A DNA stretch of 11,760 bases. Origin: a virus (Duplodnaviria; Heunggongvirae; Uroviricota; Caudoviricetes). The stretch is taken from IMG/VR virus record IMGVR_UViG_2737471850_000002. The stretch is one strand, 5' to 3'. The notes beneath the pieces were generated by a model. That model was not told the DNA's origin. It did not search any database and saw only the letters and a program-made list of their open reading frames with translations. A program made the position numbers and the translations under genes. Below, piece after piece: positions 7,551 through 9,043 of this stretch (within the stretch, counting starts at the first letter, position 1; every line of letters starts with the position of its first letter).

Positions 7551-8444
7551 ATGGCAAGACCAAAAAAATTAACTTATGGGGCGGTGAATATAACAATGCA
7601 TCCCCACTCGCCAGAAAAATATGTAGAATTGTTCAGAATGGCAAGAAAAAACGCGAGAAATGTTAATTTGAGGGGGGACTCTTTCGCGACTTTATCACAC
7701 TTTTATCCTTACAGGAAAGATCAGGTAGTTAGTGAACCTTTTGAAGGGGAAATTCTAAAGTATACAGATATTGATGTTGATGGAGATTGGTTCGATATTG
7801 TAAAGAAAGACATTGCCTCAGATGAGCAAAAGGAAAGGATAAGTATACCTGAGAATTTAAAACCAAATGTGGCTCGATTCTCTTTTGTTTTTCTACCTGC
7901 CAGCCATCTTTTAGTTTATGAGATGCAGGACAAAGGTCGGCATCTTACATCAAAACAAATAGAAAATTTTCTGAATGGAATATTTTCTCATGAGAGAATT
8001 ATAGAGAAGTTTGGGAAGATTAATGTTACAATATTAACCGAGCCAGATAACGTAGAACGTATGCTTTCTTTAAAAGGCATTACGTGTATAAATATGGTTA
8101 CTCGACGTCCTAACCCAGATGATCTCGCTTCTGCAGAAAGTATTATGCAAAAGCGTTTCAAACGTATTGGCGTTATTGAAGAAGATAAAACATATAAATC
8201 TGAGCGTGGTCAGGAAATTAAACCTGATAGTGAGTTAAAGCAGGATGCTCTTATTGCTTCGAGAAATGGCGAAGTTAGCATACGTAGGATTAATGAGGCG
8301 GGATTAGTTGAGGTTCATGCCTCAAGCGATTTACCACTTCAAAGGGTTGAATCATATGATTCTGACGTAACATCAGTTACTGAGCTATTGTTATTAAGAG
8401 CAAAATCTTTAGCAGATGAGTTTAAGAGGCTTCTGAGAAAGTAA
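7551..8444 (+). CDS. Uncharacterised soluble protein, 297 aa; first gene of an AT-rich two-gene cassette
   Basis: ORF track 7551..8444; AAGGA SD 11 nt upstream; no Walker A or other motif I can recognise; stop overlaps the start of the next gene by 1 nt (TAATG). Confidence 0.75.
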   Translation: MARPKKLTYGAVNITMHPHSPEKYVELFRMARKNARNVNLRGDSFATLSHFYPYRKDQVVSEPFEGEILKYTDIDVDGDWFDIVKKDIASDEQKERISIPENLKPNVARFSFVFLPASHLLVYEMQDKGRHLTSKQIENFLNGIFSHERIIEKFGKINVTILTEPDNVERMLSLKGITCINMVTRRPNPDDLASAESIMQKRFKRIGVIEEDKTYKSERGQEIKPDSELKQDALIASRNGEVSIRRINEAGLVEVHASSDLPLQRVESYDSDVTSVTELLLLRAKSLADEFKRLLRK

Positions 8445-9043
8445 TGAGTAAAGTAAAAGAATCAACCAGTGCAATGGCTAGATACTGGAAGATCTATGGT
8501 GGCGCTGGGGCTGTATTTAAAAGTCGCTATTTTTGGTGTGCTTTTTTTATGACAGTGATTCTTTATCCATCTTGGTCTCATCAGGGGTGGTGGAATGATA
8601 TTCTGTCGTTAATGCCGAACCTTTTGGGTTTTTCACTGGGTGGTTTTGCTATGTGGATTGCTATTGGAGATGAGGCTTTCAAAAAAATAATAACTGGAGA
8701 TGAAGAAAGTGAAAATGGAGAGGTAGAATATTCTCCTTATATGTCTGTGAATGCAACCTTTGTTCATTTTATATTATTGCAGTTGTTAACTATAATAACG
8801 GCCTTGGTCACCAAGGCCTATAGTAGCATTCTCATAAATAACGCTTTTATGTATTATTATTTAGGTGTTGCTTACAGGTATGTACTGTTAACATTCAGCT
8901 TCTTTGCATACTTTATATTTATTTACTCAGTATTCTCTGCGTTAGCTGCCGTTTTTGCTATATTTCGTGTTTCTAGTTGGTATAATACTTTTATGACCTT
9001 ACGAAACAAACAAGATAACGCTAAAAATAATAAGGAGGAATAA
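8444..9043 (+). CDS. Uncharacterised integral membrane protein, 199 aa, about 4 predicted transmembrane helices; second gene of the cassette
   Basis: ORF track 8444..9043; four hydrophobic segments (about residues 28-45, 53-75, 104-126, 147-174); translationally coupled to the upstream gene. Confidence 0.75.
   Translation: MSKVKESTSAMARYWKIYGGAGAVFKSRYFWCAFFMTVILYPSWSHQGWWNDILSLMPNLLGFSLGGFAMWIAIGDEAFKKIITGDEESENGEVEYSPYMSVNATFVHFILLQLLTIITALVTKAYSSILINNAFMYYYLGVAYRYVLLTFSFFAYFIFIYSVFSALAAVFAIFRVSSWYNTFMTLRNKQDNAKNNKEE

Follow-up and report, generated by a model that had tools for sequence, protein, structure and literature searches.

What does a pair of overlapping genes, one encoding a soluble protein and the other a small membrane protein, do for the mobile element that carries it? 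This question is raised by positions 7551–9043 of a DNA stretch of 11,760 nucleotides (IMG/VR record IMGVR_UViG_2737471850_000002, classified among the Caudoviricetes), which is referred to at its full length as the window. A first-pass annotation, made from the sequence by eye, had described the two open reading frames (ORFs) as a soluble protein coupled to a four-helix membrane protein of unknown family, and had proposed that they form an undescribed defense module with a membrane effector. Our analysis leads us to favor, with moderate confidence, the view that the two genes constitute a phage-exclusion (abortive infection) cassette resembling RexAB, which an integrative, satellite-like element carries as interchangeable cargo. 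A defensive role is supported by the predicted fold of the first protein, by the genomic context, and by the literature, where such pairs appear as the 'DUF4747/CarolAnn prophage system'. The cassette is a catalogued member of the Rex-like class and hence not undescribed, while the family of its membrane partner has no name. No phage-exclusion system has been known for longer than Rex, whose mechanism is still debated.

Two overlapping genes encode a DUF4747 protein and a membrane protein

The architecture described for the pair was borne out by the program-made ORF list, the sequence itself, hydropathy analysis and AlphaFold models. ORF1 (7551–8444, + strand) begins with ATG and encodes a soluble protein of 297 residues, and ORF2 (8444–9043, + strand), also starting with ATG, encodes a membrane protein of 199 residues. 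The TAA stop codon of ORF1 (8442–8444) and the ATG of ORF2 (8444–8446) have one A in common, giving a one-nucleotide TAATG overlap (in context, agaaagTAATGagt), and an AAGGA ribosome-binding site is located at 7535–7539, 11–15 nucleotides 5′ of the ORF1 start codon. Judging from the number of their homologues and the strong conservation of their motifs, both are genuine genes.

ORF1 is a full-length member of the Pfam family DUF4747 (PF15931), which it matches over positions 1–257 of the 257-position profile with a score of 327.2 bits, the gathering cut-off being 27 (E = 9.5e-98). The same family was recognized in all 69 of its database homologues (69/69), and ORF1 also matches phrog_10040. 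The protein lacks any hydrophobic segment, its highest Kyte–Doolittle mean over 19 residues being 1.17. An AlphaFold model computed from 37 homologues was of high quality (pLDDT 91.6, pTM 0.87), and when it was compared with the PDB by Foldseek the first match was the crystal structure of lambda RexA (8twq; E = 4e-7, probability 1.00) and the second was E. coli RdgC, followed by CHL4, IML3 and CENP-N. Indeed, RdgC and CHL4/IML3/CENP-N are the structural relatives given for RexA itself in the paper on its structure (PMC11077077). The model displays the two-domain RexA/RdgC arrangement, and ORF1 is accordingly described here as having a predicted RexA/RdgC fold, with no claim that it belongs to the RexA family. 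A weak local alignment recurs in the same register in BLASTP and hhalign, pairing ORF1 residues 240–254 (GEVSIRRINEAG; window 8268–8312) with RexA residues 214–228 (SDISLRAKDEAG). This RexA hairpin holds the DNA-binding residues R219 and K221, and position 245 of the DUF4747 alignment is mostly K or R; the alignment is statistically insignificant and is treated as no more than a hint.

A phmmer search of ORF1 against PDB sequences found no match, and NCBIfam provided no assignment for either protein. Similarly, ORF1 had no tblastn match in 50,697 phage genomes; therefore the DUF4747 pair appears to be absent, at the sensitivity of that search, from sequenced records of virulent and temperate phages.

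ORF2 contains hydrophobic segments at approximately residues 29–46, 53–75, 99–132 and 140–180, and its AlphaFold model (pLDDT 82) consists of four long helices at 28–45, 49–74, 98–131 and 142–197, so that by both measures it has the features of a small inner-membrane protein with four transmembrane (TM) helices. The distribution of charges, interpreted with the positive-inside rule, predicts that a central loop of about 25 residues (76–100) is cytoplasmic, as are the two termini. In Sbash gp31, the membrane protein of a prophage defense pair considered below, substitutions that abolish defense fall in the central cytoplasmic loop (Hatfull-lab Sbash paper). A holin-like reading was considered and rejected.

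The sole family match of ORF2 is phrog_20580 (E = 1.2e-35), and it has no Pfam family. The description of the pair as being of unknown family therefore holds for its membrane protein, and not for ORF1. Likewise, the profile and structure searches that had been suggested as a check placed ORF1 in DUF4747 and in the RexA/RdgC fold and left ORF2 without a significant fold match among viral structures. The ORF2 family is nonetheless large: at least 177 homologues were found in the database, and a profile built from 36 of them retrieved 1146 clusters (50% identity, E ≤ 1e-3), nearly all of 180–230 residues, with members in several phyla. The motifs YW..YGG, P..LGFSLGG.A....GD and S..M.....F.HFI..Q are invariant, and RVSSWY is nearly so.

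A few members of the ORF2 family are longer. In P0322 (407 residues) a P-loop domain (GPVGSGVSKT) precedes the TM domain, and of P0265 (363 residues) and P0298 (333 residues) one carries an FR47-like, acetyltransferase-type C-terminal region and the other a long coiled tail of low complexity. These fusions suggest that the TM domain might be a modular effector, although they could be artefacts of gene calling. A DUF4747–TM domain fusion of the Rosetta-stone kind was not found among the long family members, whose extra domains are of other types or unassigned.

The two genes are conserved as a unit

The first-pass annotation had asked whether the two genes co-occur in other genomes. In a collection of species-representative genomes, 14 loci contain an ORF1 relative, of which 11 have a complete gene together with downstream DNA, the remaining three being one truncated remnant and two contig ends. 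An ORF2 relative lies directly downstream in every one of the complete loci (11/11). Look-ups seeded with ORF2 relatives or with distant ORF1 relatives gave the same result, the genes being adjacent in 14 of 14 places. These hosts are Vibrio, Klebsiella, Methylophaga, Shewanella and two metagenomic lineages, and they include Holophagaceae as well as a metagenomic locus whose ORF1 is only 30% identical; overall, the pair spans Pseudomonadota and Acidobacteriota. The overlap of stop and start codons, or a close abutment, recurs among the loci.

ORF2 is better conserved than ORF1 in 9 of the 11 loci (for example, 51% versus 37%), a pattern that would fit a conserved effector coupled to a faster-evolving sensor. 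Some genomes appear to be losing the pair. In Klebsiella and Shewanella basaltis an intact membrane gene stands beside a DUF4747 gene that has been split or truncated (L026 5095–6001, L028 5468–6001 and L034 3115–4001), and in Klebsiella spallanzanii it is instead the membrane gene that is apparently frameshifted (L003 6906–7414). Because an intact membrane gene persists next to a broken DUF4747 gene in the Klebsiella and Shewanella loci, ORF2 alone is evidently tolerated.

The cassette is interchangeable cargo of an integrative element

The cassette is present in 13 of 5426 complete E. coli genomes. Window positions 7200–9200 are identical in three complete genomes, and nine further genomes carry the cassette at more than 99% identity, their match to the window extending over 7200–9053 before they diverge. 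Based on the RefSeq annotation of close relatives, the genes of the surrounding backbone encode AlpA, AntA/AntB, an Icd-like protein, DUF4222, a primase or RepA helicase, ProQ/FinO and PerC, and the element is an integrative, satellite-like one that bears the cassette at its cargo end. Roughly 660 E. coli genomes contain this backbone.

The last conserved backbone gene is a 180-nucleotide ORF (7039–7218, + strand) for a hypothetical protein of 59 residues. Homology between related islands ends at about 7165–7215, around the end of this ORF; BLASTN alignments of the window with L018 and L019, for example, stop at 7165 and 7214. What follows the same ORF depends on the strain: the DUF4747 pair, GapS1 (one strain), a trio of DNA methyltransferase, DUF262 protein and MAE_28990-type HEPN nuclease (several strains), or nothing at all (ETEC1749). 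The alternative cargo occupies 12513–14111 in L018, 11275–14373 in L019, and 10275–13373 in both L032 and L033. GapS1 is a published anti-phage system from a study of GMT islands (bioRxiv 10.1101/2023.03.28.534373). A fixed backbone position at which unrelated defense systems alternate is what distinguishes hotspot cargo, and the alternation between strains at this junction marks it as a defense hotspot of this island family. The methyltransferase–DUF262–HEPN trio, for its part, resembles an uncharacterized system of the restriction-modification (R-M) type.

A second copy occupies a different hotspot. In NCTC10973, a P4-like satellite at ssrA carries, between its psu and int genes, DNA that is 88.6% identical to window positions 7442–9051, and the psu–int region is the P4 defense hotspot described by Rousset et al. 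2022 (PMC9122126). Table S1 of that study lists the NCTC10973 homologue of ORF1, WP_023196287, together with its partner as 'DUF4747 + hypothetical'. From P4 hotspots the same authors cloned pFR86 and pFR81, both of them RexA-family pairs, rather than the DUF4747 pair (PMC9122126), and protein 1 of pFR86 matches Pfam RexA (5e-11) and not DUF4747. A cassette with the same boundaries is also found beside pao genes. The stretch 7442–9051 (+ strand), comprising a leader and both genes, thus moves as a unit.

More distant loci point in the same direction, adjoining an MmeI-type R-M system with helicase and T5orf172, PtuA-like ATPases, AbiEi, a type I specificity subunit with a CBASS cyclase, and integrases. 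One metagenomic scaffold (L035 2658–8927) carries, all co-oriented, a type I R-M specificity subunit, the DUF4747 pair, a 676-residue HATPase_c_3 protein, a 65-residue ORF and a SMODS/AGS_C CBASS cyclase, which together make up a compact defense island. In a Shewanella prophage the pair directly follows a CI-type repressor gene and precedes int.

A proposed RexAB-like exclusion mechanism and its alternatives

A RexAB-like architecture can be defined as a RexA-fold gene directly 5′ of a co-oriented four-TM gene, the two forming a unit on mobile elements, and the cassette has each of these features. The proposal that it is a defense module with a membrane effector is likewise favored by the fold, the strict pairing, the swap-in position, the copy in the P4 hotspot and the literature, the activity itself being argued from lambda RexAB and Sbash gp30/gp31 as analogues. 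On that analogy, ORF1 would dimerize and serve as a DNA-binding-type cytoplasmic sensor of infection, held at a fixed ratio to ORF2 by the overlapping stop and start codons. Upon infection this putative sensor would contact and act on ORF2, which would then dissipate the membrane potential, so that ATP would fall and phage growth would be aborted. The biochemical precedent for ORF1 comes from RexA, Sbash gp30 and CarolAnn gp44, which are dimers with non-specific DNA binding (PMC11077077), and the functional precedent comes from the cytoplasmic plus four-TM pairs of Sbash and CarolAnn (Hatfull lab; PMC6426596, PMC6426606) and of Butters (Mageeney et al.), which have been shown to defend. The authors of those studies tied the cytoplasmic protein to DUF4747 and to RexA by weak HHpred matches.

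Several results weigh against this interpretation. At the level of primary sequence ORF1 is not recognizably a RexA: Pfam RexA (PF15969) did not match it at E ≤ 1, BLASTP of ORF1 against RexA gave no significant match, and hhalign of the DUF4747 and RexA family alignments gave E = 0.075 with a probability of 0.75%. Nor did BLASTP, hhalign, HMM (profile hidden Markov model) and fold searches detect similarity of ORF2 to RexB, CarolAnn gp43 or the partner in the RexAB-like pair pFR86. For RexB in particular (PF15968), there was no Pfam match to ORF2, BLASTP and hhalign were not significant, the ORF2-family HMM scored E = 0.8 in an eight-sequence set, and in a fold search against viral models (BFVD) RexB was not among the top 50 matches, the best of which had E = 0.11. 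ORF2 may consequently be an analogue of RexB rather than a homologue. PADLOC, which had been named as a check on the locus, recognized neither protein (PADLOC-DB 2.0.0, 2023), its one match, of ORF1 to GajB (E = 0.012, 11.9 bits), being at the level of chance and ORF2 having none. The precedents are themselves qualified, since the channel model of lambda Rex is old and unproven and the DNA binding of RexA is dispensable for exclusion (PMC11077077). Among the Rousset et al. data, the RexA-family pairs appear solely in Table S2B, with the additional tested systems (PMC9122126), and in the preprint of that study one such pair is reported to give 'moderate protection' against P1vir. Finally, we found no phenotype or experimental test of a true DUF4747 pair in the literature that we searched.

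Could the pair instead serve the element on which it resides? It might tune induction or excision, with exclusion as a by-product. Lambda offers a precedent, in that RexA also tunes the lysis–lysogeny switch, biasing CI/Cro toward lysis against the antagonism of RexB, and the RexA study doubts that exclusion is the 'true' function (PMC11077077). The position of the Shewanella prophage pair between the repressor gene and int is suggestive of such a role, as is the location of the pair nearly always within or at the edge of integrative elements. On the other hand, no repressor/Cro pair is adjacent to it in the window or in the P4 setting. The cassette also resides on backbones as unrelated as an AlpA–primase island, P4-like satellites, Vibrio and Klebsiella elements and R-M/CBASS islands, and unrelated defense genes replace it at one backbone position. 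Because the cassette hops between backbones and swaps with defense genes, a backbone-specific regulatory role is hard to reconcile with its distribution, and we regard a life-cycle function as unlikely. A toxin–antitoxin or addiction module, in which ORF1 would restrain a toxic ORF2 and thereby stabilize the island, is slightly less probable still. A small membrane protein overlapping a soluble partner does recall membrane-toxin modules, and a GhoT/OrtT toxin gene is found nearby in E. coli F9792. The simple form of this idea was nonetheless rejected, given the Klebsiella and Shewanella loci that keep an intact ORF2 with a broken DUF4747 gene, a RexA/RdgC fold that is not among the known antitoxin folds, and the placement of the large protein first and the membrane protein second, as in rexA–rexB.

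We assign a similarly low likelihood to a non-lethal superinfection exclusion at the envelope, whereby ORF2 would block DNA entry or another membrane step with ORF1 as an accessory and without host suicide. Many int-adjacent prophage morons are membrane exclusion proteins, and for Butters gp30/gp31 the authors put forward a model other than that of Rex, with the role of the membrane protein limited to modulating its cytoplasmic partner; yet ORF2 is obligately paired with a protein of DNA-binding-type fold and its cytoplasm-facing motifs are the more strongly conserved, both of which point to cytoplasmic signaling. As for an accessory of ETT2 type III secretion, or a housekeeping pair, the first-pass annotation had named homology to such a family as grounds for abandoning the defense proposal. 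The sole support for it is proximity, as ETT2 genes lie about 4 kb downstream in F9792, but these neighbors belong to a separate island. The pair occurs without type III secretion genes beside pao genes, in P4 satellites at ssrA, and in Vibrio, Methylophaga, Shewanella and Acidobacteriota, no type III secretion system being found in any other setting examined, and it is carried by only 13 of the 5426 E. coli genomes. This distribution effectively refutes the idea, to which we attach a negligible probability. Of the four alternatives, this one and the life-cycle function are the two that hotspot exchange and the range of backbones speak against most strongly.

The RexAB-like phage-exclusion cassette thus remains our preferred reading, and it has consequences that can be stated for either outcome. 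If defense and ORF1–ORF2 signaling hold true, the pair would test 'RexA-fold sensor plus four-TM effector' as a general immune design, and a defensive role would add a family that PADLOC-DB 2.0 missed here. If the pair is not defensive, this would favor the idea that pairs of the Rex type work chiefly for the mobile element. A broader proposal, which we advance only tentatively, is that DUF4747 and its four-TM partner constitute a widespread branch of Rex-type immunity, with an effector that is modular and evolutionarily unrelated to RexB. In that event, a cassette found in two different hotspots could become a tractable model for learning how a sensor with the RexA fold gates its membrane partner. 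This question dates from Benzer's work on rII.

The leader and the remainder of the window

The cassette had been described as an AT-rich block, unlike the left part of the window, following a long promoter-like leader at about 7250–7550. The compositional contrast with the left part is real, the GC fraction being 0.34–0.40 over 7400–9000 (35–39% for the block that contains the two ORFs) as compared with 0.47–0.60 in most of 1–4000; however, because 4200–6000 and 9000–11700 are equally AT-rich (0.35–0.46), low GC is no cassette-specific trait. The gap between genes upstream of ORF1 likewise exists, with a length of 332 nucleotides (7219–7550), although only its last ~110 nucleotides, starting at 7442 where the NCTC10973 copy begins to align, move with the cassette. 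A consensus promoter scan found no + strand site in 7219–7550 and was at chance for the region (7 sites in total versus 7.5 expected by shuffling), while a relaxed scan produced one candidate matching 8 of 12 positions (−35 TTTTCT at 7492–7497, −10 TATATT at 7514–7519). Scanning for promoters and terminators gave nothing over chance in the leader or 3′ of ORF2. The ORF1 promoter is nevertheless likely to lie within the leader that travels with the cassette (7442–7550, + strand), which also contains the AAGGA site, and the 7492/7514 site is a weak candidate for it. No tRNA, tmRNA or Rfam element was found in the window.

Two further backbone genes are kept in every variant of the island. Positions 4285–5427 encode a 380-residue protein with a lipoprotein-like N-terminus (…LTGC…), and positions 5492–5815 encode a 107-residue membrane protein of two to three helices; neither has a Pfam family. 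Downstream of the cassette, a glycoside hydrolase family 15 gene (9455–11065) is a pseudogene with an in-frame stop at codon 265 (10247–10249). Its counterpart is intact (537 residues) in F9792, the two being 98.9% identical over 1771 nucleotides without insertions or deletions.

F9792 (L001) is the closest complete genome and was used as the reference for gaps in the window. Relative to it, the window lacks about 7.8 kb at 3705/3706 (an Icd-like gene, RepA helicase, SDH protease and an insertion sequence remnant), 377 bp at 6515/6516 within a 528-nucleotide MerR-like ORF, and about 8.7 kb at 11073–11078 (GhoT/OrtT, a helix-turn-helix regulator, and ETT2 genes from sctC to SpaN/EivJ). Coverage of window positions 1–7200 stays below 80% in every complete E. 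coli genome.

Comparison with known systems

The closest counterparts of the cassette are catalogue entries. The pair listed in Table S1 of Rousset et al. and the 'DUF4747/CarolAnn prophage system' of an EMBO J 2026 study (PMC13373217), which reports 17 such operons downstream of capK–capS, are of the same family as the window pair, which figures in both sources as an operon with a predicted immune role. The window copy differs in residing in another element and in having no capK/capS upstream.

Sbash gp30/gp31, CarolAnn gp44/gp43 and Butters gp30/gp31 resemble it as prophage-borne pairs of a cytoplasmic and a four-TM protein, with defense demonstrated experimentally. CarolAnn gp44 and gp43, however, have no Pfam match even at E ≤ 10, so that gp44 is not a DUF4747 protein by HMM, and hhalign of the ORF1 family against gp44 and of the ORF2 family against gp43 gave E = 0.53 and 0.82, respectively. 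The proteins of these actinophages are at best remote relatives, whereas ORF1 is a true full-length DUF4747 protein; their hosts, moreover, are Actinobacteria and not Pseudomonadota. RdgC (2OWL), a recombination-associated DNA-binding ring protein, differs as a stand-alone housekeeping protein without a membrane partner, and it has no sequence similarity to ORF1 (8–9% identity in structural alignments).

A further comparison is with lambda RexA/RexB (PF15969/PF15968; 8TWQ). Neither protein of the cassette has detectable sequence similarity to its lambda counterpart. ORF1 belongs to another Pfam family, and ORF2 has 199 residues to the 144 of RexB, whose model it does not match. The lambda genes are separated by 15 nucleotides rather than overlapping by one, and they are adjacent to cI and cro, neither of which adjoins the pair in the window. 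In both systems, nevertheless, two co-oriented genes encode first a cytoplasmic protein and then a four-TM protein, and a mobile element carries the unit, which is expressed while the element is resident. RexA is the top structural match of the ORF1 model in the PDB, and the location of rexAB after cI is mirrored by the Shewanella prophage pair that follows a CI repressor gene. The cassette would represent a compact, self-contained (~1.6 kb), E. coli-native relative of Rex, in which a putative RexA-fold sensor is coupled to a partner from another family, one that is far larger and better conserved.

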